A stretch of DNA of 64,000 nt from a virus (IMGVR_UViG_3300028610_002494:1-64000); one strand, 5' to 3'. Positions 13,314 through 64,000 are shown, numbered from the stretch's first letter. Notes: generated from the sequence alone by a model not told the origin. Program-made: numbers and translations.

Positions 13314-14559
13314 ATTAAAAAATGGAGGCTTAAATAAAATGAACCCTGAAAAAATGGATTTTTTAAATGATTTATACCAAAAAAATATTAACACTATTAA
13401 AACTAAAGATTATGAAATTCTTTACAAAATTGCTTTTTTTAATCAAGAAAAATATATTCAAGAAGCAAATGATCTTATTCAAAATTATGATAATCAAATA
13501 AACCTAATAAGAGGTAAATAAAAAATGTCTCAATTAATCGCTGGGAATGGACAACAAAAATTTGTCTACAGTAATTGTAAAGGAAAATGCTCTGAATGGA
13601 ACGAATGTTATAAAGAATTATCAAGTAGACATATAGTTGATGGTAAATGGGTTAAAAATTATAGTGTAATATGTAATAGAATAACTATTTCTGAATTGAG
13701 ATATTGTTTAGAAGATAAGTGTAAAAGTGAATAAAAAATGAATAATACAATAGAGTATAAAGCTAAAATAAATGGGAGAGGCAAGTTAAAATTATATGGA
13801 TATACTCCTAAATTTTTCTGTGTATTTTATATTGAAGGTTTAGGAGAAAAGAAAGCTATGATTTCTGTTTCTGATCATAATATGAATAGATGGGGAAATT
13901 TATTCAGCAATGATCCTATATCAACAATTTCTAAAGGAGATACAGTAAGTTTTATGTTTGATGGTGATATTACAAATATAGAATGGTTAAATGTTGATTC
14001 TTATAATATAACAATACTTGATAATTCTGGAACGAAAAAATGGAATATTGAAAGAGAACAATATAGAAAACAAATGAAACAACAACAAGATGCTGAATTT
14101 GAACGTGAACGTGAAATAAGAAGAGTTAAAAACGAAAAACGAATTGCAGAAAGAAAAGAATTATATAAAAAATATCAACAATGGTATTTTAAAGAATATA
14201 ATTCTAAAACAACAGGTTCTAATATTTTGAAGATGTATAATGTATTGAATTTGATTGAACATGTTCATTCTTTAATTGGTGTTAGAGGTAAAAAAGGATT
14301 TTATACAGGTGGTGATTGGAATAGACCAACTGGTCTCTATGCAAACGTGTTTCATGGATTAAATCAAAATATAGTTAATAAAGCATTAAATGAATTAACA
14401 GAAAATGAATTTGCAGAATTTAAAATATATAAAGTCATTCAAATTGAATCACATACACGGATTACAACTGAAACCAAACAAAAAGGGATTCGAATAATGA
14501 AAAAAGGTCATATTTTTTTAACAAAATTTAGAGATTTTAAATATAAAAAAATTTTATAA
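13306..14559 (+). CDS. Three hypothetical genes (13306-13521, Cys-rich 13525-13734, 13738-14559)
   Basis: Tightly packed ORFs; no recognised motifs. Confidence 0.5.
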
Positions 14560-27003: not shown

Positions 27004-29028
27004 ATGGATTATATTTTAAAAGATGATATATTAACCATTACTAATAATAAAAATGGTTATAAAAGGGTTTTAACCTTAAGAAAAGGGCAAATTAGAGCTA
27101 TTAATCATATAGAAAATCATTTTATGGAAAATTTTCTTTTAGTTGCACCGACTGCTTGGGGAAAAACAGTTATAGCAATAGTTTATATCATAAAAATGTA
27201 TAATGATGGATTAAAATCAGTATATACATCTCCACTTAAAGCATTGACAACAGAAATAGTTTCCAAATTAACTGAATTAGGACTTATAGTTTTAGAGGAT
27301 ACAGGAGATTTCAGGAAGGATCCATTAAGGGATTACGAAAAATGTGATGTATTAAGTACAACTTATGAAAGACTTGGTTCGGTTATAATAAATCAGAAGA
27401 ATCATAGTGTTTTTGATGATTTTGGTCTTGTAATTGTTGATGAAGTTCATACAGTTCATTCTGACAGTAGAGGTGTTGATTTAGAGTCTTTAATAGTTAA
27501 AATAAAACAACATACTTCAATGGCAGTCATGGGAATGTCTGCTACTATAAAAAACTATGGACAAGTGGCAGATTTTCTTGAAGGTGAATATATTTATGTT
27601 CCTGTATCAGAAAGACCTGTTAAGCAGAATATAAAAATTATGTATTATTCATCTGAAAATCATTATGCATCAATTTCGGAAAGAAATTCAATGTTAAGAC
27701 CAATATTAAATGATTTAATTAGAAGAGATAAACAAGCGTTAATCTTTTGTAGTTCACGCGATAGGTGTGAACAATTAGCAAGAAGTTTTTCTGGGTTAAA
27801 ACAAAGAGATCCGACTGAACTTGCTAAAAGATCAAATTATACTTGGCATCATGCTGGAGTAGAGGTTTATCAAAAGAAAGAAATAGAGCAAATGTTTTTA
27901 GAAGAAAAAGTTAGATTTATCTTTTGTACTCCCACTCTTGCTATGGGAGTAAATTTACCTGCATATAGTGCAGTTATTTATGATGCTTATCGTTATAGTG
28001 GACTATTATCAGATGATGTTATGATTGAAGGTCTTGAAGTTGAGCAGATGTATGGAAGAGCAGGGAGACCACAATATGGTGAAAAAGAATGTGAAATTTA
28101 TATTTTTCCACGTTCAAGAGATGAACCTTATATTTTACAAGAGAATTATATAAAATCAAAAATGCTTAAAAAATTGAAATATGTATTTAACGAATGGATA
28201 ACCAGTGGGATTAGTTTTTCAGCAGAAATATTAGATTCTTTAAAGAAAACACTTTTGAGTAAACAACATGAGTTTAATGAGATTAAAAAAGAAGGAACTA
28301 TTGCACTTAGATTTCTACTTACAAATGGATTTATAAATAGAAATGAAAATAAAGAATTTATACCTTCTTTTTTAGGAAGAATGACAGCGTTATTTCGTAT
28401 TAGACCAGAAACTGCTTTACATTTTAAGAAAATAGAGTATGAATATAATAAAAGAGATTTTTCTGATTTGGAATTAGTAGCAAATCTTTTAAACACCGAC
28501 GAATTTTTAGATTTGATTAGGGTTGCCGAGAGAGATACTCAGTTAATTGATTTATGTTCAAGAATTTTTATGGAGCAGGGAATATCATATGATTTATATG
28601 ATAAAAAGATACTTAAAGCGATTCCAATGATTTTTACCGATTATTTTAATAAGAAGTTTAATGTTAGAATTGTTTTATATAGAACTGATGCAAATACACT
28701 TGCTAAAATTATGAAAAGACTTTTGAGTTCAGCTGAAGTTATAATTTATGATAAAACTCTTAAAAAAAGAATTTCATACCTAAAAGTAATGATACAAAAC
28801 AAAACTTTAGACAGGGATGTTGCTATACTAAAAAGTGCTAAGGGACTTGGCGATGTAAGACTTAATAGGTTATTTAGAGCAAATATAAAAACTCCTGAAG
28901 CTTTTTTAGGAAGAGCAGATTCAGAACTTATAAGAATTATGAAAGTATCAAAAAAGGTATTAGATAACATAAAAATTAGCTTAAAACAAGCAATTAAAGA
29001 AAACATAAAAATAACAAAAAAGGAATAA
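27004..29028 (+). CDS. hel308: Hel308/Ski2-like SF2 helicase
   Basis: APTAWGKT, PLKAL, DEVH, MSAT, HHAG, TPTLAMGVNLPA, QMYGRAGRP and a C-terminal HhH. Confidence 0.9.
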   Translation: MDYILKDDILTITNNKNGYKRVLTLRKGQIRAINHIENHFMENFLLVAPTAWGKTVIAIVYIIKMYNDGLKSVYTSPLKALTTEIVSKLTELGLIVLEDTGDFRKDPLRDYEKCDVLSTTYERLGSVIINQKNHSVFDDFGLVIVDEVHTVHSDSRGVDLESLIVKIKQHTSMAVMGMSATIKNYGQVADFLEGEYIYVPVSERPVKQNIKIMYYSSENHYASISERNSMLRPILNDLIRRDKQALIFCSSRDRCEQLARSFSGLKQRDPTELAKRSNYTWHHAGVEVYQKKEIEQMFLEEKVRFIFCTPTLAMGVNLPAYSAVIYDAYRYSGLLSDDVMIEGLEVEQMYGRAGRPQYGEKECEIYIFPRSRDEPYILQENYIKSKMLKKLKYVFNEWITSGISFSAEILDSLKKTLLSKQHEFNEIKKEGTIALRFLLTNGFINRNENKEFIPSFLGRMTALFRIRPETALHFKKIEYEYNKRDFSDLELVANLLNTDEFLDLIRVAERDTQLIDLCSRIFMEQGISYDLYDKKILKAIPMIFTDYFNKKFNVRIVLYRTDANTLAKIMKRLLSSAEVIIYDKTLKKRISYLKVMIQNKTLDRDVAILKSAKGLGDVRLNRLFRANIKTPEAFLGRADSELIRIMKVSKKVLDNIKISLKQAIKENIKITKKE

Positions 29029-30187: not shown

Positions 30188-31174
30188 GTGTTTATTATAG
30201 GAACAAAAATAAAACAAATGGTTGACCAAGTTAAAAGATCTGTTACAATAGAAAATTTATTTAATAAAACAATTGCAATAGATGCATTTAATTCAATATA
30301 TCAATTTCTTTCTATAATAAAAGGAAAAGATGGAAAACCTTTAAAAGATTATAGAGGAAGAATAACATCACATCTTAGTGGTTTATTATATAGGAATTTG
30401 ATATTTTTAGAAAAAAGTATTAAACCTATTTATTGTTTTGATGGAATAAATAAATCTCAAAAGGTAAGATGGTCTAAACCTACAAAAAGTAAGGTTAGGA
30501 TTAATGAATATATAATTTCAGAAAGTAAATCACTTTTAGATGCTTTAGGAATTCCTTGGATTCAAGCACCAGCAGAAGGAGAAGCACAATGTTGTTATCT
30601 TGTCCAGCAAGGAGATGCTTGGGCTGTTGCTTCTCAAGATTATGATTGTTTTGCTTTTGGTGGAACAAGATTAATTAGAAATTTTGCAGTTCATAGAAAA
30701 AGGAAAAAAGGAAACACTCAAACAGAGTATGATATTGAGTTTATATCACTTGAGAAATTATTGAATTATTGGAAAATCACAAGAGAACAACTTGTTGATA
30801 TTTCTATATTAGTAGGAAATGATTTCTTTGAAGGATTTAAGGGATTTGGTGAAAAGAAAGCTTTAAAATATATAAAAGAATTTAAACATGTATTTGGAAA
30901 TGATGATATAATACTTTTAAGAAGAGATGGTGGTGAATCACTTGGAGAAGAAATGTATAATACATATATGGATAATAGAAAAATATTCTTAAATCCAGTA
31001 GTAAATAAAGATTATAAAATAAAGTTTAAAAAACCTAATTATATAGAATTACATGAATTACTCGTTAGAGAACATAATTTTTCAGACAGAAGAATTGATT
31101 CTGTAATATCAAGATTAAAAAAGCTTAATGAAAACAGTAAAAAACAAATAAATTTAGCTAAATTTTTAAAATAA
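30188..31174 (+). CDS. fen: Flap endonuclease 1
   Basis: IAIDAFNSIYQFLS, TSHLSGL, FDG, EGEAQC, SQDYD, GND; C-terminal PIP box QINLAKF. Probable start is ATA at 30197 (MGTKI). Confidence 0.93.
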   Translation: MFIIGTKIKQMVDQVKRSVTIENLFNKTIAIDAFNSIYQFLSIIKGKDGKPLKDYRGRITSHLSGLLYRNLIFLEKSIKPIYCFDGINKSQKVRWSKPTKSKVRINEYIISESKSLLDALGIPWIQAPAEGEAQCCYLVQQGDAWAVASQDYDCFAFGGTRLIRNFAVHRKRKKGNTQTEYDIEFISLEKLLNYWKITREQLVDISILVGNDFFEGFKGFGEKKALKYIKEFKHVFGNDDIILLRRDGGESLGEEMYNTYMDNRKIFLNPVVNKDYKIKFKKPNYIELHELLVREHNFSDRRIDSVISRLKKLNENSKKQINLAKFLK

Positions 31175-32141: not shown

Positions 32142-32789
32142 ATGGTAAAAATAATTAAACAGTCTTATGAAATACTTACTGATCTTGATGGATTAGTAAT
32201 TCTCAAAAATATTGAGAAAGCTGCCAGAACTTGTTATAAATCTGAACATCTTATAATAGAAGATGGTGAATCTGCTAAGAAATTAGTTAAAAACTTAGTG
32301 GAAAGAGGACATACTGCTATGTTAGAACATGGTGGAATGATTTCTGTTAAGATAATTTGTAATAGAGGACTAACCCATGAATTAGTAAGACATCGATTAT
32401 GTAGTTATGCACAAGAAAGTACAAGATACTGTGATTATTCTAAAGATAAACATGGAAATGAAATAACAGTAATTAGACCATTAAATTTTCATAGTTATAG
32501 TTCTATAGAAAAAGAAAATCAAATATATTGGGCTTGGTGTCAAGCAATGGATGCAGCTGAACAATCATATTTTAGATTAAGAAAACTTGGAGTATCACCA
32601 CAAATAGCTCGTGGTGTACTTCCAATTGATATTAAAACTGAAATCATTATTTCTACTAATCCAACAGAATGGAGACACATACTAAAACTTAGAACTTCTC
32701 CAGCTGCTCATCCACAAATAAGAGCTATTATGATTGGAATATTAAAAGATTTTAAAAATAAAATACCAATTATATTTGATGATTTATGA
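32142..32789 (+). CDS. thyX: Flavin-dependent thymidylate synthase
   Basis: AARTCY, GH..MLEH, HELVRHR-x7-S (QESTRY), ARGVLP, LR...AHPQIR. Confidence 0.95.
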   Translation: MVKIIKQSYEILTDLDGLVILKNIEKAARTCYKSEHLIIEDGESAKKLVKNLVERGHTAMLEHGGMISVKIICNRGLTHELVRHRLCSYAQESTRYCDYSKDKHGNEITVIRPLNFHSYSSIEKENQIYWAWCQAMDAAEQSYFRLRKLGVSPQIARGVLPIDIKTEIIISTNPTEWRHILKLRTSPAAHPQIRAIMIGILKDFKNKIPIIFDDL

Positions 32790-36865: not shown

Positions 36866-38068
36866 ATGAAAATTCCAGATAAATGTAAAGAATGTATGCA
36901 TAGGATTAATGATTTCTGTAAAGGTTATGGATTTAAACTTGAAGTCCTTAGTGTAGAAAACTGTAAAAGAAGAAAAACTGAAAAACAAACTAAAAAAAAA
37001 ATTGTTAAACATGCACGTGCTCGTTATCGTAATAGTAAAATAGGATTTGCTGGAAATAATAGTAATTATATGGGATGATAATCATGGCAGAAGAATTCGC
37101 AGATATTTTAGATGATATCAAAAGAAAACCAATGGAAGAAAGAATACAGGCTTTAGGAAGTATAGTTGAAAAATTAATTCAAACAATATTAAATGTCTCA
37201 AATAATACAGAAATAATGTTAAACTCTTTTAGAAATGAAATTGATATTTTAAAACAACAAATTAAAGTAATGAGAGTATCACAAACTAATATTGATATAA
37301 AACAATTAAAACTTAAACCACCAGAACCATTACAACCATCACAATTTACACCTAAACCAACTCCACCAATACCAACACGAAGTATGCTTGTTGGTGAATT
37401 AAATGAATTATTTAAAGCTAATAAGAAAAAAGAGAATAAATAAAATGATAACAACTAAGAATAATATTCCAGTAGCAACTGATTTTGTAAGAATAGTTCA
37501 CGGAGGAAGAGGAGATTTTGTGGAATTCACAAAAAAACAAATGATATTAATGAATATTAGTATTCCATACATTACGAAATGGAGATTATCCAAAAGATGG
37601 AAAGATAAAATTTATTATATTGAATATAGAACTAAAGATAATATTATGGTTTATTATCAAAAAAGATTAGTTAAATATGCTGATTATAAACTAAATCATT
37701 TTTATATAGCTTTAGAAGATTTAAAAATAACATAAGGAGAAAAATAAAAAATGAATGAAAAAAGAAAAATAAAATTTAGAAAATTTAGTGATGAATATAA
37801 TATTAAAACATCTAAAGACTTTGAAAAACGAGAATATATACATAAAATAACAGAAAGATATTTTATTCCCACTTTTATAATATGTTTGTTATTATTATGT
37901 ATAGGATTGGTACTTTTATTAGATTGGTTAGTGGTTGTTGTATTAATATTATCTTCAATATCTATTATAATTTTAGCAATTAGTCTTATATATTCTATTA
38001 TAAATATGAATAAAAGTAAGAAAAAATGGAAAGAATATACGAAAAAAATAGAAAGCTTAAAGGTGTAA
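36866..38068 (+). CDS. Four hypothetical genes (Cys-rich 36866; coiled-coil/Pro-rich 37075; ~37445-37735; two-TM 37751)
   Basis: Packed ORFs. Confidence 0.45.
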
Positions 38069-38070
38069 AA

Positions 38071-39048
38071 ATGAGTAAAAGATTAACAAAAAGTTTTTTG
38101 GAAAAATATAGACCAAGAGTTAGGAAAGATATAGCTGGTAATTCTGTAGTTTTAGAAAGAATATTTAGCCAAATCGATCAAGGAACACTTGTGAATATGA
38201 TTCTCACAGGAGATTCTGGGTTAGGAAAAACTACAACAGCTGAAATTATAGCCAAAAAAATTATTGGAAAAGAACATTATTATACAGACTGTGTAATTTT
38301 CAATTGTAGTGATAAAACTGGTGTTAATAACATAAGAACTGAAATCATATCATTAGAAAAACTGAGACCACCAAGTGGCATAAGAATTTTTTTAATGGAA
38401 GAAAGTGAACAACTCAGTAAAAAAGCACAATTTGCACTTAAGAAAGCAATGGAATATCCTTATGATAAATCTAATAGGTTTATATTCTTAAGTAATAATA
38501 TAACTAAATTTATTCCAGCAATTAAAGACAGGTGTAGAATATATAATTATATGGCAATAAAACCAGATGAAATGTTTCCAAGACTTAAATATATTGTAGA
38601 ACAAGAAGAAATTGATATTTCTGGTAAATTATTACATACACTTGCTGAACTTTCAAATGGAAGTATGAGATATCCTATAATACAACTCGAGGAATTTAAA
38701 GCATTAAATAGAAAAATAATTGAAAAAGATATACAATTAGAAGAAAGTCTTGAAACAATTAAAATCATATTTAGTTTACTTAAATCAAGAAAAATTCCAC
38801 CTGCAAGGAATAAAATACTGGATTTATATCAAGATGGAAGTAATTTTAATAACATAATTAAGTATTTCCACGATTTTACGATGATGTCTTTAGGAAATAA
38901 CCTAAATTATAAATCTAAAGCAAAATGTTTGATTAAAATAGCTAAAACAGAACGAAATGTTAAGGAAGGATGTAATGAATTTATCCAAATAAGCTTTTTA
39001 TTATCAAATATAAGCATATTATTACAAAAAACAAAAACAGGTAATTAG
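38071..39048 (+). CDS. rfcS: Replication factor C small subunit (clamp loader)
   Basis: FLEKYRP, GDSGLGKTT, FNCSD.TG, EESEQL (variant Walker B), AQFAL, IKDRC; ATG follows the aggtg RBS. Confidence 0.88.
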   Translation: MSKRLTKSFLEKYRPRVRKDIAGNSVVLERIFSQIDQGTLVNMILTGDSGLGKTTTAEIIAKKIIGKEHYYTDCVIFNCSDKTGVNNIRTEIISLEKLRPPSGIRIFLMEESEQLSKKAQFALKKAMEYPYDKSNRFIFLSNNITKFIPAIKDRCRIYNYMAIKPDEMFPRLKYIVEQEEIDISGKLLHTLAELSNGSMRYPIIQLEEFKALNRKIIEKDIQLEESLETIKIIFSLLKSRKIPPARNKILDLYQDGSNFNNIIKYFHDFTMMSLGNNLNYKSKAKCLIKIAKTERNVKEGCNEFIQISFLLSNISILLQKTKTGN

Positions 39049-40799: not shown

Positions 40800-42593
40800 A
40801 TGGCAAAAAAACCAGTTAAAAAAAATGTGATACCACAAGAAATTCTTACTAAATTAAAAAGAGTTAAAACAAAATTTTTTAAAGAAGATACTCTTAAAGT
40901 TGTAAAAGAAGCATATTTAGAAATATATAAAGAAGATAAATTAGAACATAAAAATAAAAAATGGAGTAATCTAATATTCCATAAACGAGCACTTACCAAA
41001 TTAAAAAACAGGAAAAAATCTGAAAAACTTGGTGGAGCAATTGATAAATATTATATGATTGTTTTTGGTGCTTCAAATGTAAGAGATCTAAGTCAAAATA
41101 GAAGAAATAATATAATAGATCTTTGGGATGCTGATCCACAAAAAGCTATGTCTGATGGTCTTATTATGTTTATAAAAGAAACAAATCCTAAAACTGGAGA
41201 AATTGAAAAAGTACCAATATTAGATGATACAGGTGGTATCATACCGAGAGATAATGTAGAATTCGGTAAAAGAAAAAATGGAACTAAATTTAAAAATCCA
41301 AATCATGATCACGCAATTGCTCATGCTTATAGGAGAAATGTTATTGGTGCTTGTTCTAATTTACAAGGAGTAAAAGGAGTTTTTATACATGAACTAAGAG
41401 ATAAATCTGCAACTGATTTGGATATTCCAATGAATACTTTGGTAAAATCTTCTGGTAAAACATTAGGTACTGAAGTTATTACATTAGACAAAAATATATA
41501 TATCGATAGAGAGTTATTGGAAGAAATGATTACAAACTTAGAAGATGATATTGAACAAGGAATCATAACTGAAGAATATGCAAATGAAATGAAAAAACAT
41601 TATATCAACTTACTATTGATTACAAAGAAAAAGAAGAAAGAAGAAGATGATGAAGAAGAGGAAGAAGATGAAGTAAAACACGAAGAAATAGAAACCACAC
41701 TATTTAAACTTAGAAGTACAAAAGGGACAGCATTTATTAAAGTAGAAAATGAAAAAGAATTTGAAATTGCTGATTTTCCTATGAGAGATCATATGCAACC
41801 TAATATTAATCTAATATATAAAAAGTATTTCTATCCATTCACATCTGATTGTTCTAATTTACTAAACTACCACGAAGATCATAGATTTATTGATGGTGAT
41901 CCTGAACAAATTAATTGGGATGAATTTGTAAGTTTACAAGACGTTAATCTAATTCAAATTAACATGGAAGCATCCATAGCAGGAAACTATACCTTATTTG
42001 TAGAAGATGAATCTTTATTTAATAAAGATATAATTCATTTAGATGAAGACATTGATGCAATAAAACTATTAGTTCCAAGTCATGTTGATCTAAATTTTGC
42101 ACAAGACAGTAAACTAAATATTATAGGTTCACCAGTTCAATTCCAAGCACAAGATGATGAAAGAAAAGAATTATGGGAAACCAAACTAAACGAAGAAGGA
42201 GAACCTGAATTAGATAAAAATGGTAAAGAAATTAAAATTCCTGTATTTGCTTTCCCTATAATTATGATTCAAGGTATCTTTCCAATACCAGAATATATGA
42301 TTAAAGTAGATACTCTTGACTTAACTCTTGATGACGAAGTTAATGTTGACACTATATTTGAAGATTCAGATAAAAAACCTAAAGTTTCAGATGAAATTGA
42401 AGAAATACCTGAAGTAATAGATGAGCTGGAAAAACTTGAAAAAGAAGTGGAATCTGAAATAATAGAAAAAAAACCAGCGAAAAAAACCACAAAGAAACCA
42501 GCGAAAAAAACCACAAAGAAACCAATAGAAGAAACTGAAGAAACTGAAGAAATTAGTGATGAAGATGAATTTGAAGACAAAGAAATATGGTAA
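40800..42593 (+). CDS. Putative single-stranded DNA-binding protein (OB-fold-like) with acidic tail
   Basis: Beta-rich core; long acidic C-terminus ending in W; KKPAKKTT repeats; sits next to the recombinase-like ATPase and clamp. Fold is inferred. Confidence 0.45.
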   Translation: MAKKPVKKNVIPQEILTKLKRVKTKFFKEDTLKVVKEAYLEIYKEDKLEHKNKKWSNLIFHKRALTKLKNRKKSEKLGGAIDKYYMIVFGASNVRDLSQNRRNNIIDLWDADPQKAMSDGLIMFIKETNPKTGEIEKVPILDDTGGIIPRDNVEFGKRKNGTKFKNPNHDHAIAHAYRRNVIGACSNLQGVKGVFIHELRDKSATDLDIPMNTLVKSSGKTLGTEVITLDKNIYIDRELLEEMITNLEDDIEQGIITEEYANEMKKHYINLLLITKKKKKEEDDEEEEEDEVKHEEIETTLFKLRSTKGTAFIKVENEKEFEIADFPMRDHMQPNINLIYKKYFYPFTSDCSNLLNYHEDHRFIDGDPEQINWDEFVSLQDVNLIQINMEASIAGNYTLFVEDESLFNKDIIHLDEDIDAIKLLVPSHVDLNFAQDSKLNIIGSPVQFQAQDDERKELWETKLNEEGEPELDKNGKEIKIPVFAFPIIMIQGIFPIPEYMIKVDTLDLTLDDEVNVDTIFEDSDKKPKVSDEIEEIPEVIDELEKLEKEVESEIIEKKPAKKTTKKPAKKTTKKPIEETEETEEISDEDEFEDKEIW

Positions 42594-45907: not shown

Positions 45908-46372
45908 GTGTTAAAGATATAGTTAAAAAATTCATAGATGATGAAAAAACTGCTTTCTTTCAACTCATTTATGATAGTATTACACGTGCATCTTCAACAA
46001 AAAGACCAGCAAGAGCAACTATAAGATTGCCAAAATATATTTGTGATACAGACACAAGGGATTTAAGAAAATGGGAAATTATTTGTGTTGCTATTCCAAA
46101 AGAGAAAGTAATGAAACTTTTAGAGGAATAAAATTATGAGATGGAAAATACAAATCATTAATTTAGGAAGTAAAAAGAAAAGAAAGATTAAAGACCTAAA
46201 AGACTATATATATGAAATCGCAGCAAAAATACAGATTTTTGTTGTTGAATTAGCAGAAGAAGATGAAACAATACCACTAACAAAACAAGAAAAATTAAAA
46301 AGAACTGGTGATTTCCTTTTAAAATTACAAAAAGAAATATTAGAATTTAGGAGAAATAAATATTGTCGTTAA
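45886..46372 (+). CDS. Two hypothetical genes (45886-46131, 46136-46372)
   Basis: Coupled ORFs. Confidence 0.5.
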
Positions 46373-47022
46373 TGGATTTTATTGGAAATAAAAAACCATT
46401 GGAAGAATTTATCAAATCTAATAAAGAAGATATTAAATTCAAGAAAATTAAATTTGAAGATATAATCTTTAGTGCTTTCGTTCATTTAAAATGTATGAAT
46501 TGTGGAATGTATAAAAGAAATTATCACTGTTTAGCAACTCCAAGATGGAAAAAATCTAAAGAAAACTTATCAAAATATAATAATTATTACTTAGTTTACA
46601 TACAATTTGATAATAAACCAAGAATAAAGGATTATTTCAAGAAAAGAGAAGTGTTTAGAGCACAAGGAAGTAAAGGAATGAATGATTGGTTAATTTATAG
46701 GAATGCTTGTGGTGCAAATCAAGCAATCATAGTTAGTAAATTAAGAAAATTCTTGATAAATGTTAAAACACACTATTCTAAAGAAAAATTAAAACTTTTT
46801 GGTGCAGGTGGTGGATGTCGTGGTTGTAGAGTTTGTGGGTTGGTTAAACCACAAATGATTAAAGAACCAAGAGAACCATGTAAAAAACCAAACAAGACTT
46901 TTGGAGCACCTGAAAGTATCGGAATAGACGTATATGCAACTTTAAAGAGAAATAAAATAGAATATGATGTCATACCAAAAAATAAATTAATAACAGTAGG
47001 GTTGATATGTCAAAAACAATAA
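46363..47022 (+). CDS. DUF2284-like Cys-rich metal-binding protein
   Basis: CMNCGMY..NYHC, GGGCRGCRVC, PC..P, PESIGIDV. Confidence 0.75.
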   Translation: MSLMDFIGNKKPLEEFIKSNKEDIKFKKIKFEDIIFSAFVHLKCMNCGMYKRNYHCLATPRWKKSKENLSKYNNYYLVYIQFDNKPRIKDYFKKREVFRAQGSKGMNDWLIYRNACGANQAIIVSKLRKFLINVKTHYSKEKLKLFGAGGGCRGCRVCGLVKPQMIKEPREPCKKPNKTFGAPESIGIDVYATLKRNKIEYDVIPKNKLITVGLICQKQ

Positions 47023-47219
47023 ATTGTAATCTAAATTGTCCAGCTTGTCATACAAACATAACTAAGATGAAAGAACATCATTTAAATGAAGATTTAGCTG
47101 TATTTAGATGTTTTTATTGTGGATATACTCAAACTATTTCAAATAATGGAGAATTTGAACCACAAGAAGAATTGAATATATATTATAATGAATATATAAA
47201 AAAAGAAATTATGAAGTGA
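47007..47219 (+). CDS. Zinc-ribbon protein
   Basis: CPAC...CFYC. Confidence 0.55.
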   Translation: MSKTINCNLNCPACHTNITKMKEHHLNEDLAVFRCFYCGYTQTISNNGEFEPQEELNIYYNEYIKKEIMK

Positions 47220-47451
47220 AAAAAGAAAATGGCATGGAAATTAAGAACTTTTAAATGTAAAATTAAAAATAGAGACTATATCTCTGAGATGTTTAAGATA
47301 AATAAAAGAACTTATAATTACACAACAACCTTAGATGGTAAAGTTATTGCTCATGAAGAAAATCTCGAAATGGAGACAGCAGTTATACTTGAAGATCACA
47401 TTAAAGAAATAATTAAAAAAGAAAAAAGAATTTATCAAATGGAAAATTAAA

Positions 47452-48066
47452 ATGAGTCTTGAAAAATTTATAGGTATAAAAAGAGTAATAGATAACACAA
47501 TACCATCAGTTTTTATACATATTTTAGGTGGTCATAGTACTGGAAAGTCTGGAATAGTTGGAAGAATAAAACAAAAATATGGTGCTAAAATTATGGCACT
47601 TGGTAAGTATTCAAGAAGTAGAACAACAAAAGGACTGCTAACTGGTGGAATGGATGGAATACAGATGACCAACAAAGAACGATTTAAATACATTAAAAGA
47701 CATTTTCTTTCAAATAAACAAGTGTTATTGTGTGAAGGAATGATGGTTATTTATTATGATTCTTTTTTAAGCAAATACTATGAACTACAGAAAATAAAAC
47801 ACAGAACTGTTTATGTAATATTACTACAAACTGATATTGAAACAATGCGAAAAAGAATATCTAAAAGAAGTAAAGGAAAAGAACATAGTGAAAAAAGAGA
47901 AAGAAATTTAAGATCAAAAGCAAGTTGTTCTGAATCAACTTATAATAGACTTGAAGAAAATAGTACATTTATTAAAACTAAATTCGATACATCAGATTCT
48001 AAGATTTTTGATAATATAGTTATATATATATCTGAAATTATTGACAAAACACTAAAAAAGGAATAA
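47452..48066 (+). CDS. P-loop kinase resembling 5-hmdU DNA kinase
   Basis: GGHSTGKS, LGKY, GGMDGI (family GGxDxI), LLCEG, RI.KRS lid. Confidence 0.7.
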   Translation: MSLEKFIGIKRVIDNTIPSVFIHILGGHSTGKSGIVGRIKQKYGAKIMALGKYSRSRTTKGLLTGGMDGIQMTNKERFKYIKRHFLSNKQVLLCEGMMVIYYDSFLSKYYELQKIKHRTVYVILLQTDIETMRKRISKRSKGKEHSEKRERNLRSKASCSESTYNRLEENSTFIKTKFDTSDSKIFDNIVIYISEIIDKTLKKE

Positions 48067-48068
48067 AT

Positions 48069-48641
48069 ATGGATTTTTTGATAAGAAAAATTAAAAATGA
48101 AAATGATAAAACACAAATTAAAATAATTTGTGAAAGTGTGGACAATAAAACAGTGAAATCTTTTCCTAATATTTGGGAAAGATTTAATAACTGGGAAAAG
48201 AATCCACCTTATGTTGTTGAAATAGATGGAAAGATAATTGCTTTTATGGGATTCACGATTAATAGAAATAATTATATTAATTTTTATGATTTTGCAGTTT
48301 TACCTGAATACCAAAGAAAAGGTATTGGTTCAGCTTTATGGGATAAGGTTATTAAAATTGCAACAGAAAATAGTAAAACAAGAATAAAATGTTCTGCTCA
48401 CATAGATTATGGTGGATATTTCTTTTACACTAAGAAAGTTAATTGGAAACCAATTGCAAGAAAAGGGAAAGAATATAAATTTGATGCTTTAATTGAAGGA
48501 ATTGATAATATTAATGATTTTACAAAAAGTATAAAGAAACAAACTCCACCAGATAAAAAAGAGATTGAAAGATATCAGAGATTAGATGAGTATTTTTATA
48601 ACTTAACTAAAAAAATATGGGAGTACTTTAAAAAATGTTAG
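48069..48641 (+). CDS. GNAT acetyltransferase
   Basis: FAVLPEYQRKGIGSAL, FFY; ends KKIWEYFKKC. Confidence 0.88.
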   Translation: MDFLIRKIKNENDKTQIKIICESVDNKTVKSFPNIWERFNNWEKNPPYVVEIDGKIIAFMGFTINRNNYINFYDFAVLPEYQRKGIGSALWDKVIKIATENSKTRIKCSAHIDYGGYFFYTKKVNWKPIARKGKEYKFDALIEGIDNINDFTKSIKKQTPPDKKEIERYQRLDEYFYNLTKKIWEYFKKC

Positions 48642-49240
48642 AAACAATTGATGAAGAAGATAAAATAATTAGGAAATTAACTTTTAAAGAAAAATTAGAA
48701 ATTGGAAAATGTGGAGAAAAAATTACAGATGAGAGAATAGTAGATATAATCCATTTCTTTACAGCTTATAATTCACCAAGAAGATGGTATATAGAAAAAA
48801 GTGTATATCAAAAACTATCTCCATATGAAAGATATAAAAAATACCAAGGCAACGGAATTGATGGATTACTTCATTATGATAGCTTATTAGTTCAAGTAAA
48901 AACAAGACAACTTGCATATCTCTTAGAAGAAGACATATATTTTGAATTAGGAAGAAGTATAAAAGGAATAAATAAATATAGTGGATGGTATTGGAAAAAT
49001 ATTGATTTATTATTATATTATTTTTATAGCTTAACAAAAAAGAAGATAATGTGTGGATATGTTATACTTCTGGATGAATTTAAGAAAACATATAACACTC
49101 CTGTAAAAATTAATAAGAAGTTTGAAATAAAATGTGATTGGAACTTTAATCCAACAAAAATATATTTTTGTCCTAAATTTAAAGATTTTCCAAATAATTC
49201 ATTTTATGATATAACACCAATAGTAAAGGAGCTGGAATAA
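48635..49240 (+). CDS. PD-(D/E)XK nuclease-fold protein
   Basis: GKCGE...QGNGIDG....VQVKTR...IYFE. Confidence 0.6.
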   Translation: MLETIDEEDKIIRKLTFKEKLEIGKCGEKITDERIVDIIHFFTAYNSPRRWYIEKSVYQKLSPYERYKKYQGNGIDGLLHYDSLLVQVKTRQLAYLLEEDIYFELGRSIKGINKYSGWYWKNIDLLLYYFYSLTKKKIMCGYVILLDEFKKTYNTPVKINKKFEIKCDWNFNPTKIYFCPKFKDFPNNSFYDITPIVKELE

Positions 49241-49241
49241 A

Positions 49242-49658
49242 ATAAAACTAATTCCTGATGTAACAGATAAAACATTAGAAACAAAGAAATTTAATCCAAA
49301 ATTAATTTATGAATCTATATTAAGAGAAACTGATATTTCTGAAGAAGATGCTAAAAGAATTATGGAAGAAGTTGTAAGAAAATTAGTTTTTATGGGTAAA
49401 AAAATAAAGTTCCTATCTGCTCGAATGATAAGAGAAACGACAAATGCAACATTTCCAGAATATGGATTTGAAGAAGAAAGAAAAAAATATACAGTAATTG
49501 GAATTCCATTCTATGATTTAAAAAATTGGGTTGAAGATAAAACCTTAATTCAAACAGAAATTGATAAAAAAATAGTAGAACATATTAGAACTGAATATTT
49601 AAATGTAGAAAACCTAATAGAAACAATAAGAAATGGAGAAAATAATGAGAGATTATAA
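49242..49658 (+). CDS. Stand-alone ATP-cone protein resembling the N-terminus of archaeal class III RNR
   Basis: Frame extended to ATA 49242: FNPKLIYESILRETDISEEDAKRIMEEVVRKL..IKFLSARMIRE...YT.IGIPFYD. Confidence 0.72.
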   Translation: MKLIPDVTDKTLETKKFNPKLIYESILRETDISEEDAKRIMEEVVRKLVFMGKKIKFLSARMIRETTNATFPEYGFEEERKKYTVIGIPFYDLKNWVEDKTLIQTEIDKKIVEHIRTEYLNVENLIETIRNGENNERL

Positions 49659-50763
49659 TATAACAGACTACAGAACTGAAAGATGGAATGGTTTTAAGGA
49701 TTATTATATTAAAGAAATGTACTGTGGTGATGATCCAAATTATCCTGCTTTAAATTATATTTGTGATAAATTAAAACTAACTGAAGAACAGAGATATTGG
49801 ATTGCATTCTTATATGGAACTAATTATTGTGTTCCAACAACATATTACATTTTTAAGGAATTTCCTGATTATGAAAGAATAGATATTGACGAACTACAAC
49901 ATTGGTGGGATAAAAATAAAGAAAAAACACATTTCCAAACAGACAGAGCAAAAGTAAAGAACTTTAATTATTTTGTAAAATGTGTTGAAAGCTATCAAGA
50001 TTTAGTAGGAAAAAACCAAGTAGAAACTTTTGATATATTTACTGAAATAGATGATAATCAAGAAAAATATAAAATGGTTTATGATTTTACTAATGAAATA
50101 TTTTATTTTGGAAGATTTAGTTTATTTAATTATCTTGAAACAATTAATAAACTCACTAATTTAGAAATGGAACCAGATGGTTTAGATCTTAAATATGCAG
50201 AGAGTGCACGTAATGGACTATGTTATGCTTGTAATAAAGAAGAGTTTATCACATTACATCACAAAAAATCAAAAGAAAAGATAAATTATAGGTATTTACA
50301 AGAAAAACTCGAAACAATTGTATATGAATTAAAAGAAGAGAACCCTGAGATTGATGTAAACTACTGGAATGTTGAAACTGTTTTATGTGCATATAAAAAA
50401 CTATTCTGGAACACAAGATATCTTGGTTATTATATTGATAGACAAATGGAAGATATAATTAAATTGCAGAATAATGTAGATATAATAGATTGGAAAATTC
50501 TATGGGATTTTAGAGCTGAATTTCATCATCCACAATTTCTTGGTGAATTTAATGACTGGAATGGGATAAGAGAAGAGAACAAGTATTATGTAACAAAACA
50601 TGGAATACTTGATATTAAAGAATTTCCTAAATATAAAACCTGTTTAAGAAAAGTTGATTTACAATCTACTAAAAAACCAAAATTAATAAACAACTTAGAA
50701 CATTATAAAAGAAGAATAATAAGCAAAAAACCTAAACCAAAAAAAATATGGGAATATTTTTAA
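49633..50763 (+). CDS. aGPT-Pplase2-like amino acid:DNA transferase (thymidine hypermodification)
   Basis: EQRYWIAFLYG, FQTDR, FGRFS.FNYLE, S.RNGL, ETVLCAYK, RY.GYYIDR; likely start 49645; ends KKIWEYF. Confidence 0.8.
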   Translation: MEKIMRDYNITDYRTERWNGFKDYYIKEMYCGDDPNYPALNYICDKLKLTEEQRYWIAFLYGTNYCVPTTYYIFKEFPDYERIDIDELQHWWDKNKEKTHFQTDRAKVKNFNYFVKCVESYQDLVGKNQVETFDIFTEIDDNQEKYKMVYDFTNEIFYFGRFSLFNYLETINKLTNLEMEPDGLDLKYAESARNGLCYACNKEEFITLHHKKSKEKINYRYLQEKLETIVYELKEENPEIDVNYWNVETVLCAYKKLFWNTRYLGYYIDRQMEDIIKLQNNVDIIDWKILWDFRAEFHHPQFLGEFNDWNGIREENKYYVTKHGILDIKEFPKYKTCLRKVDLQSTKKPKLINNLEHYKRRIISKKPKPKKIWEYF

Positions 50764-50779
50764 AAAGAGGTGAAATATT

Positions 50780-51016
50780 ATAACAAATCATAAAGAAATA
50801 AGATACAAAATCTGTTTTAATTGTAAGGTGTTTATGCCAATTTTCACTTGTGATGCCATTAATCTACAAGAACTAACAAATTTCGAAAGAATACATAATG
50901 AACATATGGTTCAAACTATAAACTACAACGAAATACCTACAAATTATATATTTATTAAAGGCAAAAATGCAAGAGAAAGAACTTTAACACAAATTCAAAA
51001 AATGTTAGAAGTATGA
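50780..51016 (+). CDS. Small metal-binding protein (ATA start)
   Basis: CFNC...H..H; the track ORF at 50828 lacks the CxxC. Confidence 0.55.
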   Translation: MTNHKEIRYKICFNCKVFMPIFTCDAINLQELTNFERIHNEHMVQTINYNEIPTNYIFIKGKNARERTLTQIQKMLEV

Positions 51017-51174
51017 AAAAATGTAAGGGATGTGGATATCCTCAAAATCCACCAAATAGCAATAAAATTTGGTTATCTGAGGATGGTCTATGTTCAATAT
51101 GTTATTCAAAACAAATAAAACTTAAAAAAAATAATAAAAAACCTAAAAAAATATGGGAATATTATGATAATTAA
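51013..51174 (+). CDS. 53-aa zinc finger with KKIWEYY tail (not in ORF track)
   Basis: MKKCKGC...CSIC...KKPKKIWEYYDN. Confidence 0.6.
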   Translation: MKKCKGCGYPQNPPNSNKIWLSEDGLCSICYSKQIKLKKNNKKPKKIWEYYDN

Positions 51175-57377: not shown

Positions 57378-57804
57378 AAAAATAAAATTATCACAATTCA
57401 TTGGCAGACAATTATCAAGATTAAAAATGGGTCAAGTATATTATGTAATGGGAATGTATTCTATAACAGCTGTAGGAATATTAAAAGTAGCATTTCCACA
57501 AATAAGTATTTGGACATTTATACTTTTTATTCCATTTATGTTTGTTGGAGCTTTTTTAATTGGTTTTATTGCAGATAGAAGTAATGTTACAACGATGGAT
57601 TATCAGAAGACAATAGAGATGACAAACAGATATTTAACCATTTTAGACTTTAAAAATAATGATTTTAGAATACTCCAAATGGAAACTATGTTTGAATGGA
57701 TAAAATCCTTAAAAGAAAATAAACCTTTAGATAAAAATATATTAAATGAGAAATATAAAGAATTTTTAAATAAATGGAGTCCTAAAAAAGAAAATGAAAA
57801 ATAA
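57370..57804 (+). CDS. Two-TM membrane protein
   Basis: Two hydrophobic helices. Confidence 0.5.
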   Translation: MFKKIKLSQFIGRQLSRLKMGQVYYVMGMYSITAVGILKVAFPQISIWTFILFIPFMFVGAFLIGFIADRSNVTTMDYQKTIEMTNRYLTILDFKNNDFRILQMETMFEWIKSLKENKPLDKNILNEKYKEFLNKWSPKKENEK

Positions 57805-60023: not shown

Positions 60024-62381
60024 TTGAGAAGAAGATTCACATTTGATATAGAAATTAATTATGATGAAATAGACCCATTTGATTTAGTAATTAAAAAAGG
60101 ATCAAGTCCTATTCAAATGTTTGGTTGTTATGATTATTATAAAAATAAATTTTATTCCTTTTTTTATCATAAAAACGTGAAATTAATACCTGCAGAAGAA
60201 ATTAAAAATAAAATTGATAAAAAAATATATTTAATGCTTAAAAAACATTTTGGAAATCAAAAATTTGTTGTTAAAGAAGGATTTTTTAATTCTACTGAAA
60301 GTGGAAGAAAATGGAAATGTAGATATCTTTCTTTTAATAATGAAAAAATAATGATTAGAGCATTTATGAAATTTGTTAAAGATATCAGTCCAGACATTTG
60401 GTCTGGGTTCTTTATTGAAACATTTGATCTTGTTTATATTATGAACAGATGTAAAACACTAAAAGTTAGTTATAAATATTTAAGTCCACTTTATGAAGCT
60501 TATATAAGTCATGGAAGAGCTAAAATAAGAGGAAGTATAATATATGACACTCCTAAAACTTATGCTAAATATATGGGAACTCATCGTCATGCTAATTCAC
60601 TGAAAAAAATAGCTGAATCACATCTGAAAAGAGATGATGACCACAAAATAACTAAAACATCTGAAAGTATTATAAACGAAGATTGGTATGATAATGATTG
60701 GAAAAAATTCATAGAATATTGTTTAGTAGATGTAGAATTATGTGTTTTATTAGAAGAAGAACTTGAACTAATAAGCATGGCAGAAGGATTTGAAAAATTT
60801 ACTGGAACCAACCCTGAATTTGTATTTTTTCCTTCTCATCTAATTGAAAGTACATTTAATTTCATTAAACCTATTTATGAAGAACAAGTATTAAAAAATG
60901 AATATAAAATTGCATTTAACACTAAAAAGAGAAGAAAATTTGAGAAAGCAGCAGGTGCAAAAGTATTAGAAAGTAAAAAAGGATTTTATCGAAAAGGATT
61001 AATGATAATCCTTGATCTTGCAAAAGAATATCCAAAAATAATAGAAAGTATAAATATATCACCTGAAACTTTAGTTAAAATAATAGATCAAAATGAGAAA
61101 GACAAATACAATTATTGTAAAGAAAATGATGTATATTATGTTAAAGAACCAATAGGATTTGTTCCTTTTGCTTTTAAATTTCTTTATTTAATAAGAGATC
61201 GTATAGAAAAAGAAAGAGATAAATTTGAATTTGGTTCTGATAAATTTAATGATATGAACAAAAAAAGACAAACAGTAAAAGATTTGATAAATGCTGTCAC
61301 AGGTCAAGCTGATTATGCAGACTCAATTATTCTTAGTCCAATATGTGCTAATTCATGTAGATTAACTGGACAAAAAGAAATAGTAATATCTGTTAATTAC
61401 ACAAAAAAATTTGGTATTGAATTAAAATTAAAACTTAAGGTTATTTATGGTGATACTGATTCTATTTTTGTTTGGTTAGAAAATGTACAAGATGTTGAGA
61501 TTGCAAAGAAAATAGCTAAAGAAATATGTAAATGGATACAAGTTGGGTTTGATAAATATGCAAAAGAACTAAATTTAAAATCTCACCAATTTGAAATAGG
61601 TTTAGAAAAAATATTAGATATTTTTGTTAGTATAGGCAAAAAGAAAAAGTATTTTGGGCATATTTTATGGGCAGATGGTAATTATGTAAAAGAAGAAAGC
61701 AGTTTACTTGTAAAAGGATTTGAGACAAGAAGATCAGACAGTAGTGATTTTACAGATAAAATACAAAAAGAAATATTTGGATTAATAAACAAAACAAGAA
61801 TATTAGGATGGCATAAAGTAAGAAAAAAAATACTACATAAAATAAAAGTGGAATATCCAGATGGGTTTTCAGAAGATAATTTACTTACAATTGGAATACC
61901 TAAAAAAATAAATAAACGATTTAAAGATTACAAAGTGACAAATGCTCATCTAAGAGGATGTGAATATGCTAATAAATATGTTAATGCTAATTTTCATGCT
62001 GGTTCTAAACCTAAATTGATTTATATTAAAGAGGTTAAACAAAAAGGTGATATAACTTTTCCAAAAAAATATCCACCAACAGATGTATTATGTGTGCAAG
62101 AAGGTATGAAAATTCCAGAAGGAGTTTTTATTATTGACAAAAAAACAATGCTGGAAAAAACAGTTTATAAAAAATTAAGACAAACACTTGATGTTGTAGG
62201 AATACCAATATCACAAATACAAAGTGGATTGAAACAAACTAATATAAAAGATTATTTTAATAAATTTAGTAATGACAAAAAAATAACGAAAAAACATATT
62301 TTAACTATAAATAAAGAAAAGTTAGGTAAAATATTAATTAACTCTAAAAATATTCTTAAAACTATGAAAAAAGAGGTTTAA
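60024..62381 (+). CDS. polB: Family B DNA polymerase, exonuclease + polymerase domains only
   Basis: Starts at ExoI FDIE; FDL.Y, YCLVD, DLAKEYP, K..IN, YGDTDS, KKKY, KGFE..RSD; PIP box QTNIKDYF. Confidence 0.92.
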   Translation: MRRRFTFDIEINYDEIDPFDLVIKKGSSPIQMFGCYDYYKNKFYSFFYHKNVKLIPAEEIKNKIDKKIYLMLKKHFGNQKFVVKEGFFNSTESGRKWKCRYLSFNNEKIMIRAFMKFVKDISPDIWSGFFIETFDLVYIMNRCKTLKVSYKYLSPLYEAYISHGRAKIRGSIIYDTPKTYAKYMGTHRHANSLKKIAESHLKRDDDHKITKTSESIINEDWYDNDWKKFIEYCLVDVELCVLLEEELELISMAEGFEKFTGTNPEFVFFPSHLIESTFNFIKPIYEEQVLKNEYKIAFNTKKRRKFEKAAGAKVLESKKGFYRKGLMIILDLAKEYPKIIESINISPETLVKIIDQNEKDKYNYCKENDVYYVKEPIGFVPFAFKFLYLIRDRIEKERDKFEFGSDKFNDMNKKRQTVKDLINAVTGQADYADSIILSPICANSCRLTGQKEIVISVNYTKKFGIELKLKLKVIYGDTDSIFVWLENVQDVEIAKKIAKEICKWIQVGFDKYAKELNLKSHQFEIGLEKILDIFVSIGKKKKYFGHILWADGNYVKEESSLLVKGFETRRSDSSDFTDKIQKEIFGLINKTRILGWHKVRKKILHKIKVEYPDGFSEDNLLTIGIPKKINKRFKDYKVTNAHLRGCEYANKYVNANFHAGSKPKLIYIKEVKQKGDITFPKKYPPTDVLCVQEGMKIPEGVFIIDKKTMLEKTVYKKLRQTLDVVGIPISQIQSGLKQTNIKDYFNKFSNDKKITKKHILTINKEKLGKILINSKNILKTMKKEV

Positions 62382-63570: not shown

Positions 63571-64000
63571 ATGAGAATATTTAAGAACAAAATTATCTTA
63601 GGAAATTGTTTAGATATCTTAAAATTTATAGATGATCAAGTAGATTTAGTTTTAACTGATCCACCACAATATAGATTAATTAATGATGATATTAAACTAA
63701 ATAATAGAAAAGATTTTGTAAGAAAAGCCAATTTTGATTTATTTAATTCATATAAAGATTTCCTTATTTTCACTGAAAAATGGATTAAATTAACATCAGA
63801 ACTGATGACTAATAACTCAACAATATATATTTCATATGCTGAACAATTCTCAAATGACCTAATTAATATTTGTAAAAACTATGATTTATCATATTTTGAT
63901 ACATTTTATTGGCATAAAACCAACCCAATGCTACAGATCAGAAAAAGAAACTTTAGATCATCAGTAGAGACAACCCTAATATTTACAAGAGGAAAATACA
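63571..64000 (+). CDS. N6A/N4C DNA methyltransferase (3' truncated by window; not in ORF track)
   Basis: MRIFKNKIILGNCLDIL...VDLVLTDPPQY...YWHKTNP; open to the window end. Confidence 0.8.
   Translation, partial: MRIFKNKIILGNCLDILKFIDDQVDLVLTDPPQYRLINDDIKLNNRKDFVRKANFDLFNSYKDFLIFTEKWIKLTSELMTNNSTIYISYAEQFSNDLINICKNYDLSYFDTFYWHKTNPMLQIRKRNFRSSVETTLIFTRGKY

Follow-up and report, generated by a model that had tools for sequence, protein, structure and literature searches.

Why should three unrelated proteins of one virus end in the same peptide? This question is raised by the virus record IMGVR_UViG_3300028610_002494, a genome of 111,837 bp with direct terminal repeats and 25% GC, whose first 64 kb (positions 1 to 64000, here called the window) we analyzed. 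Within a DNA modification island at ~45.6 to 59.8 kb, a GNAT acetyltransferase, an ADDT-family amino-acid:DNA transferase (ADDT), and a 53-aa zinc-ribbon protein all finish with KKIWEY[FY] or nearly so, and a DUF2284 protein and a P-loop kinase of the same island share a second peptide at their N termini. A first-pass annotation of this DNA had likened these peptides to PCNA-interacting peptide (PIP) boxes and proposed that hypermodification of bases is organized on the viral sliding clamp and coupled to replication. Four in silico lines support this proposal, namely, the fold of the clamp, the conservation of the peptide, its mismatch to a ribosome-binding site (RBS), and a co-fold; the coupling to replication is a step that we infer. 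We consider it probable that the shared end peptides act as short linear motifs of the PIP-box kind, which would dock DNA-modifying proteins onto the sliding clamp.

Across all 111,837 bp, the C-terminal tag KKIWEY[FY] has exactly three occurrences, which lie at the C termini of three different island proteins (Table 1), and KKIWEY is one of only two nontrivial 6-mers common to at least three of the 185 predicted proteins. This restriction to C termini within one island is one reason for reading the tag as a clamp-docking motif. The shared ending reported earlier for the three proteins was confirmed, although the tag lies at the extreme C terminus in ADDT only, with 3 residues following it in the acetyltransferase and 2 in the zinc-ribbon protein, for which no Pfam family was matched. 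In all three proteins, the sequence I-W-E-Y-F/Y supplies a hydrophobic residue at PIP position 4 and aromatic or hydrophobic residues at positions 7 and 8. The tag also resembles motifs in clamp clients of the same viruses, which again favors docking: QTNIKDYF in the family B DNA polymerase (PolB) and QINLAKF in FEN1, both located where they had been described, and RKSLFEYI at the position of QTNIKDYF in the PolB orthologue of a related locus, L005. Both PolB and FEN1 of this virus carry Gln at PIP position 1.

The transferase is the tagged protein for which the setting of the peptide could be modeled. It matched PF18724 with 72 bits (cutoff, 26), and its top three PDB fold matches were PaMx11 gp46, a 5-phosphomethyl-dU (5-PmdU) glycinyltransferase (probability 1.00; E = 0.01). 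In the stand-alone model, a folded all-alpha core is followed by residues 327 to 372 with a predicted local distance difference test score (pLDDT) of 26 to 34, below 50, and a single helical turn at I-W-E. These residues belong to a Lys-rich, poorly conserved extension of ~45 residues, predicted to be disordered, that starts at ~50623 and is closed by the tag, which sets the tag, as in a PIP box, on a flexible end beyond the catalytic fold. The predicted disorder with its one-turn helix is a further point in favor of clamp docking. As to the start of this protein, its reading frame is open from an ATG at 49633; close homologues all begin MRDYNI or MKDYNI, making the ATG at 49645 the likely start, and from there the gene overlaps a 98-aa open reading frame (ORF) upstream (49362 to 49658) by 14 nt.

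The same three peptides might instead be a by-product of selection on DNA, with TGGGA(G/A) serving as the RBS or another signal of the next gene, a caution that the first-pass annotation had raised about the codons tgggag and tgggaa. For two of the tags, a gene does begin 5 to 13 nt past TGGGAR, and the 19-nt DNA strings of the three tags are nearly identical. However, the Shine-Dalgarno sequence of this genome is (A)GAGGT, 6 to 10 nt from the start, and of 125 starts, only 2 have TGGGA upstream. The distance from tag to next start is irregular, the ORF after ADDT has a GAGGTG of its own, and AAA, ATA, and TAT are the codons expected at 25% GC. We therefore rejected the caution, and the comparison with relatives pointed the same way.

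At the DNA level, this comparison covered five metagenome loci, one of them of useful length (L005, which spans 20.8 kb of a 67-kb metagenome contig and whose PCNA is 47% identical). Scans of viral contigs with ADDT, the PCNA alignment, and a 336-aa neighbor gave no match, nor did scans of genome contigs for relatives. In L005, the zinc-finger orthologue (13153 to 13320) ends NKRIWDYGE, and a protein with no counterpart in our virus, a TET-associated glycosyltransferase (TAGT; PF20691, 1.3e-14, 55 bits against a cutoff of 27.5), ends IRKVWDY. Appearing in this sister virus on a different DNA-modifying enzyme, the tag seems to follow function and not fold. Among the transferases, the catalytic domain ends at a conserved RKVxFxSIGDVY (alignment A2), and only the closest clade of ADDT continues for a further 25 to 45 Lys-rich, unalignable residues. 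Tagged orthologues 61 to 81% identical to ADDT end KKIWEYF (P0028 and P0032) or KSIWDYV (P0030), other extended members end KISDVIG (P0033), NLNKWIKSK (P0034), or GLGRWI (P0035), and the extension is absent from P0036, P0038, P0040, and the solved PaMx11 gp46 (~288 aa). We considered and rejected the family-wide ..SIGDVY end as the counterpart of KKIWEYF, since it closes the catalytic domain, becomes internal in ADDT-GNAT fusions, and precedes the tag by 25 to 45 residues.

Where tag codons differ (GAG/GAA/GAT, TAC/TAT, ATA/GTA, and AAA/AGA/AGG/AAG), the change is silent or exchanges similar residues (E to D, I to V, and K to R). Because the tag is kept behind unalignable linkers, including in orthologues available as protein only, and because its codon changes are of this kind, selection appears to act on the protein. 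As far as the aligned sequences tell, the tag is conserved as protein and not as DNA, across viruses and enzyme families, which is how the proposed comparison of amino acid with nucleotide conservation in homologs came out. The N-terminal tags described below differ from gene to gene in their Ser, Leu, Ile, and Gly codons, and we regard nucleotide-level selection as highly improbable. Peptide conservation, including on the L005 enzyme, is another of the grounds for clamp docking.

The ORF after ADDT (50767 to 51016) is listed as a 62-aa protein starting from GTG at 50828, and its frame is open from 50774. A perfect GAGGTG at 50767 to 50772 is followed by ATT (50777) and ATA (50780); a noncanonical start there would add IITNHKEIRYKICFNCK, with a CxxC, and yield a 79-aa zinc-finger-like protein.

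The gene at 43638 had been taken to encode a viral PCNA. This was borne out by its fold, without any sequence-family match: the gene found no match in Pfam (including the PCNA_N and PCNA_C models), PHROG, or PDB (phmmer), and a PF00705 scan of the whole genome was also negative. Sequence-based recognition of the clamp therefore failed throughout, and the fold alone identified it. All 26 homologues are metagenomic. An AlphaFold2 model built from 19 of them (alignment A1) had a pLDDT of 81 and a predicted template modeling score (pTM) of 0.84, and its listed Foldseek matches were all PCNA (E of ~1e-12; probability, 1.00; target-normalized TM score, ~0.7), with the two-domain beta-alpha-beta fold of a clamp. 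The gene is single copy in the genome. The C-terminal tail of the predicted clamp is acidic in 18 of 19 aligned homologues, and its interdomain connector, ~44 aa long with a helix at 122 to 134, supplies contacts to the modeled ADDT tail; the connectors known from cellular PCNAs are far shorter. An RFC-like clamp loader subunit is also encoded, with an L005 orthologue that is 68% identical, and the presence of both a PCNA-fold protein and a loader is consistent with clamp docking.

Just upstream of the PCNA operon lies a very acidic protein of 597 aa (40800 to 42593) with a weak Pfam ERCC4 match only. It ends ..EDKEIW, and its orthologues (L003, 53 to 871; L005, 7233 to 8951) end ..DPDLW and ..EEPDIW. 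The tail, conserved in its acidity and its final [IL]W, recalls the protein-recruiting tails of SSB-type proteins.

We carried out the co-fold with the 43638 product that had been suggested for each peptide on the ADDT tail as the sole tag, combining residues 341 to 372 (alignment A2) with three copies of PCNA (alignment A1). The predicted complex passed its controls, with an interaction prediction score from aligned errors (ipSAE) of 0.72 compared to 0.02 for the best of three unrelated control peptides, a difference that also argues for docking onto the clamp. Of 80 solved complexes, 58 attain the mark used for such co-folds, as do 2 of 110 mismatched pairs; these numbers are a rough guide here, the job having used its own alignments and being unlike the calibration set. 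Runs shared at least 90% of contacts, with pLDDT of at least 54 for the partner and 89 to 90 for the PCNA copies. In the model, tail residues 359 to 372 meet one PCNA subunit at residues 47 to 54, 127 to 134 and 149 (connector), 183 to 184, 231 to 233, 256 to 257, and 274 to 285 (C-terminal tail). The lowest-error contacts are those of I368, W369, and Y371 with residues 47 to 54, 130, 149, 256 to 257, and 274 to 276. Together with F372, these three residues are predicted to enter a site lined by F256/P257, residues 47 to 54, the interdomain connector, and the acidic tail at the C terminus of PCNA; on this tail lies the Lys-rich flank of the tag. From its residue ranges, we take this site to be the PIP pocket under the connector and the layout to be that of a PIP-box complex.

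Other relatives carry tails of a second flavor. A scan of predicted-protein C termini picked out KSGVLGWL at the end of a DNA methyltransferase that straddles the window edge (Table 1), a tail of the same flavor as the alternatives found on ADDT and GNAT relatives. In three of these (P0029, P0031, and P0148), GNAT is fused behind ADDT; the fusions end GNLSNWLNKK, GNVLYWLNKK, or TGLAMWM and retain the ADDT-family end, ..IGNIY or ..SIGDIY, at the internal junction, so that a single predicted polypeptide ties both activities together. Tails interchange on orthologues (KKIWEYF, GLGRWI, and NLNKWI on ADDT; KKIWEYF, GNLSNWL, and GLAMWM on GNAT), and every one of them ends in hydrophobic-x-x-aromatic-hydrophobic. 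KSGVLGWL is also similar to QxGLxxWL, presumably the PIP box of PolB in Thermococcales; a literature search on the Pfu PolB tail yielded no confirmation. Elsewhere in the window, a protein with NUMOD3 repeats (2556 to 3455; 1.1e-16), DNA-binding motifs of the homing endonuclease type, has the C terminus KQLDLSSYII, which looks like a canonical PIP box and includes the Gln.

The second shared peptide lies at N termini. That the kinase (MSLEKFIG) and the DUF2284 protein (SLMDFIG) begin alike had been pointed out before and held true, with a third case now added on a 144-aa island protein that begins MFKKIKLSQFIG. The pattern [LIM]xxF[IL]G has six matches in plus-strand ORFs of at least 50 aa, three of which fall within the first 12 residues of island proteins. 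Its codons differ between genes (AGT CTT .. ATA GGT in the kinase and TCG TTA .. ATT GGA in DUF2284), and to judge by them the N-terminal tag is conserved at the amino acid level. The DUF2284 motif requires a TTG start, as had been cautioned; this start is credible because orthologues begin MSLNKFLG (from ATG, in L005) and MSLMEFIG (P0153), and AGGAG lies 10 nt upstream of the TTG. Only some DUF2284 representatives carry the tag (MSLMEFIG, (MII)ISLNKFLN, MSLSSFFN, NSLLEYL, and VSLYNFA). One member lacking it ends IQLTNWLKY instead, and such a swap of an N-terminal for a C-terminal peptide is, on its face, the behavior of a portable linear motif. Beyond the island, a 91-aa protein (genome 74548 to 74823; L006 11548 to 11823) starts MGKLLERFIDFF, another N-terminal motif of the LxxFI type; apart from the C-terminal tags themselves, its start region alone comes close to their 19-nt DNA string.

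Several observations weigh against docking on PCNA. Solved PIP-PCNA complexes are abundant, so that passing the co-fold may reflect likeness and not binding. The predicted interface residues of PCNA are no more conserved than the rest (0.76 versus 0.74), which made interface conservation uninformative as a discriminator of PCNA binding. Gln is absent from position 1 of the tag (T or P here; N or I in L005), and the L005 variants, WDY followed by a stop and WDYGE, keep positions 4 and 7 without a hydrophobic residue at position 8. L005 is, moreover, the sole related genome that could be examined as DNA. At the N termini, the kinase tag sits ~12 residues from the P-loop strand, very near the folded domain, and that of DUF2284 runs into a conserved, possibly structured segment. 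Finally, near-identity of three tails in one genome is unusual for PIP boxes and could mean either gene conversion or a dedicated partner other than PCNA.

Such a partner would bring the enzymes into a multienzyme complex without the clamp. Candidates for it are the DUF2284 or zinc-finger protein (island proteins conserved in both viruses), the SSB-like acidic 597-aa protein as a hub, or the tagged proteins themselves, docking onto each other. The uniformity of the tails within each genome (KKIWEY three times here and [KR][KR][IV]WDY twice in L005) exceeds that of ordinary PIP boxes of one organism, as the divergent motifs of FEN1 and PolB illustrate; the ADDT-GNAT fusions imply that these enzymes act together, and the unremarkable conservation of the PCNA interface fits as well. 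Nevertheless, we judge another partner unlikely: the tag resembles clamp-binding peptides both in its hydrophobic-x-x-aromatic-aromatic form and in its terminal position, similar tails are borne by two enzymes that do not belong to the ADDT pathway, a methyltransferase and a glycosyltransferase, and orthologues exchange the tag for G[LV]xxW[LIM] tails. These last tails presumably have the form through which archaeal PolB binds PCNA.

The flanks of the tag, very rich in Lys (KKPKPKK), would bind DNA electrostatically, and the tails of ADDT and the zinc-ribbon protein are alike over ~10 residues, as gene-to-gene copying could produce. The peptide might accordingly be a nonspecific basic DNA-binding tail spread by intragenomic recombination or, in another protein-level role, a turnover (degradation) tag or a capsid-packaging signal. 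A basic tail leaves the strict conservation of I-W-[ED]-Y unexplained, however; no link from the tagged proteins to virion modules is apparent, the retention of the motif in viruses at 47 to 81% identity argues for a specific partner, and unrelated control peptides failed to dock in the co-fold. Roles of this kind seem improbable to us.

If the clamp is the partner, then PCNA loaded on newly made DNA would hold tagged enzymes at high local concentration there, its clients being the kinase, transferase, acetyltransferase, methyltransferase, and accessory proteins. 5-Hydroxymethyl-dU (5-hmdU) could then be phosphorylated, aminoacylated, and acetylated directly behind the fork, and modification would be complete before host nucleases meet unmodified DNA. 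The tail flavor G[LV]xxW[LIM], which substitutes for KKIWEYF on orthologues elsewhere and ends the DNA methyltransferase of this virus, would serve the same end, and the N-terminal (M)SLxxF[IL]G of DUF2284, the kinase, and the 144-aa protein may fit into the same pocket. Viral PCNA, host PCNA, or both may be the clamp so bound. A bolder and rather doubtful extension is that the whole hypermodification pathway assembles on PCNA as a tool belt by way of two portable tag classes, which archaeal viruses swap among acquired enzymes. On that extension, proteins acting early or in accessory roles (kinase, DUF2284, and the 144-aa protein) would bear N-terminal SLxxF[IL]G, and the group-transfer enzymes (ADDT, GNAT, TAGT, and the DNA methyltransferase), together with the tiny zinc-ribbon adaptor, would bear either G[LV]xxW[LIM] or [KR][KR][IV]W[DE]Y at the C terminus.

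The coordinates of the genes concerned are given in Table 1. Nearly all genes of the window lie on the plus strand, and archaeal- or eukaryotic-type replication genes are found in the window and the first kilobases beyond. Besides the DUF2284 protein, kinase, GNAT, and ADDT, the island encodes a dUTPase, a GT1 glycosyltransferase, two class I methyltransferases, and two radical-SAM enzymes. Gene context makes the kinase a candidate 5-hmdU DNA kinase; against PDB, it showed weak adenylate kinase similarity, a tblastn search of 50,697 phage records gave no match, and homology to characterized 5-hmdU DNA kinases (5-HMUDKs) was not found. By likeness to PaMx11, which pairs an AADT with an acetyltransferase (PMC8989533), an acetylated amino-alkyl thymine is a possible modified base. 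At the island edge, a protein resembling nucleoside 2-deoxyribosyltransferases (PF05014; 45662 to 45907) is 81 aa long and matches only positions 54 to 104 of the 117-position profile; its L005 orthologue (11443 to 11820) has 125 aa, and the gene in our virus may be truncated or misstarted. Outside the window, MSKKE begins or lies within six small ORFs (genome 74.8 to 78.5 kb and 91.8 kb), in three of them as KMSKKE with the K upstream of the Met, possibly reflecting a paralogous family or a shared start context.

Table 1. Proteins bearing end tags, the predicted clamp, and associated genes (window positions unless stated)
Feature	Coordinates	Strand	Evidence and motifs
GNAT acetyltransferase	48069-48641	+	PF00583, 4.9e-15; tag KKIWEYF at 48609-48629, then KKC and stop; C terminus ...LTKKIWEYFKKC
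ADDT/AADT amino-acid:DNA transferase, 372 aa	49645-50763	+	PF18724, 6.9e-20; tag KKIWEYF at 50740-50760; end ...KPKKIWEYF and stop
Zinc-ribbon (zinc finger) protein, 53 aa	51013-51174	+	Tag KKIWEYY at 51145-51165, then DN and stop; end ...KPKKIWEYYDN
Divergent viral PCNA, 285 aa	43638-44495	+	Fold; acidic C-terminal tail ..LLEVEETEE
DUF2284 metal-binding protein	46363-47022	+	PF10050, 4.3e-18, domain from residue 28; tag (M)SLMDFIG at 46366-46386; TTG start
P-loop kinase, candidate 5-hmdU DNA kinase	47452-48066	+	Weak AAA_17/AAA_18 matches below cutoff; N-terminal tag at 47452-47475
Island protein, 144 aa	57370-57804	+	LSQFIG at 57388-57405; no Pfam match
DNA N6/N4 methyltransferase, 252 aa	genome 63571-64329 (window 63571-64000)	+	PF01555, 2.9e-40; ends KSGVLGWL (64309-64326) and stop
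PolB	60024-62381	+	PIP-like QTNIKDYF at 62235-62258, ~40 aa before C-terminal end
FEN1	30188-31174	+	XPG_I, 9e-30; XPG_N, 3.1e-14; canonical C-terminal PIP box QINLAKFL at 31145-31168; protein end QINLAKFLK and stop
RFC-like clamp loader subunit	38026-39048	+	Pfam Rep_fac_C, 8.8e-10; DNA_pol3_delta2; AAA
Hel308-like helicase	27004-29028		
PriL-like protein	just outside window		
ThyX-family protein	32142-32789		

Known PIP-box clients of archaeal and eukaryotic PCNA include FEN1, PolB, the RFC large subunit, ligase, and UNG2, with the consensus Q-x-x-[ILM]-x-x-[FY]-[FY]. Like them, the tag has a hydrophobic residue at position 4, aromatics at positions 7 and 8, a predicted one-turn helix, and a place on a flexible terminal tail, and it is modeled in a pocket-like PCNA site with its flank paired to the PCNA C-terminal tail. 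Unlike them, it lacks Gln 1, has an invariant Trp 5 and an acidic residue at 6, stops at position 7 in one sister-virus variant, and recurs as one heptapeptide on three proteins, and the clients are base-modifying enzymes, not replication or repair factors. DNMT1, the eukaryotic maintenance methyltransferase, carries a PIP box, and its PCNA tether lets modification follow the fork; whereas DNMT1 is a single client and a cellular epigenetic enzyme, the viral case would comprise several clients of an anti-restriction-type hypermodification pathway. In consisting of little beyond a PIP-like tail on a tiny domain, the 53-aa zinc-ribbon protein recalls small PCNA-binding regulators such as Thermococcus TIP and eukaryotic p21, but it is conserved inside modification islands and shows no sign of an inhibitory role.

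In phage T4, alpha-glucosyltransferase is reported to bind the sliding clamp gp45 (Sommer 2004; confirmed in a later pull-down, PMC13216743), and replication-linked modification has been proposed; the T4 alpha/beta ratio depends more on expression level than on clamp affinity (PMC13216743). The likeness lies in a viral hypermodification enzyme on the virus's own clamp, modeled in our case, and the differences lie in a bacterial phage, a gp45-type clamp, a single enzyme, and, in the passages of these sources covered, no shared tag. Thymidine hypermodification in phages PaMx11, M6, and ViI is postreplicative and employs a 5-HMUDK kinase, an AADT/aGPT-Pplase, and an acetyltransferase (PMC5889632, PMC8989533, and PMC11472151). 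In our virus, likewise, a single island combines ADDT and GNAT with a P-loop kinase, a dUTPase, and radical-SAM enzymes; the virus differs in its archaeal-type replication genes and in the C-terminal extension that PaMx11 gp46 lacks, and the words clamp, PCNA, and replisome do not occur in the text of PMC8989533. ParB-dependent phage thymine dioxygenases, where ParB is the activator of one enzyme (PMC13229309), also recruit a protein of a DNA-clamp family to hypermodification as an accessory, with no shared peptide tag or replication clamp involved. A literature search of incomplete coverage found no paper on PIP-like tags of archaeal-virus modification enzymes. Clamp tethering of DNA-modifying enzymes is already known from DNMT1 and reported for T4, and the case here, supported in silico, would extend it to several viral enzymes that share a tag.

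Postreplicative hypermodification must outpace host nucleases, and how its enzymes are targeted to nascent DNA is scarcely addressed in the thymidine hypermodification literature that we searched. The island described here places a phage-type ADDT thymidine hypermodification module in a virus with archaeal-type replication genes. A portable clamp tag, if real, would couple modification to the fork by simple means and would provide a sequence signature for DNA-acting enzymes among orphan viral genes, whose GNATs, zinc fingers, and DUF2284 proteins are otherwise uninformative. The parallel with DNMT1 on PCNA in eukaryotes and alpha-glucosyltransferase on gp45 in bacteria suggests convergent solutions across three domains. 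Should the tool-belt extension also hold, archaeal viruses would as a rule modify their DNA with enzymes tethered to the clamp, and an orphan enzyme that acts on DNA could be predicted from its tag.

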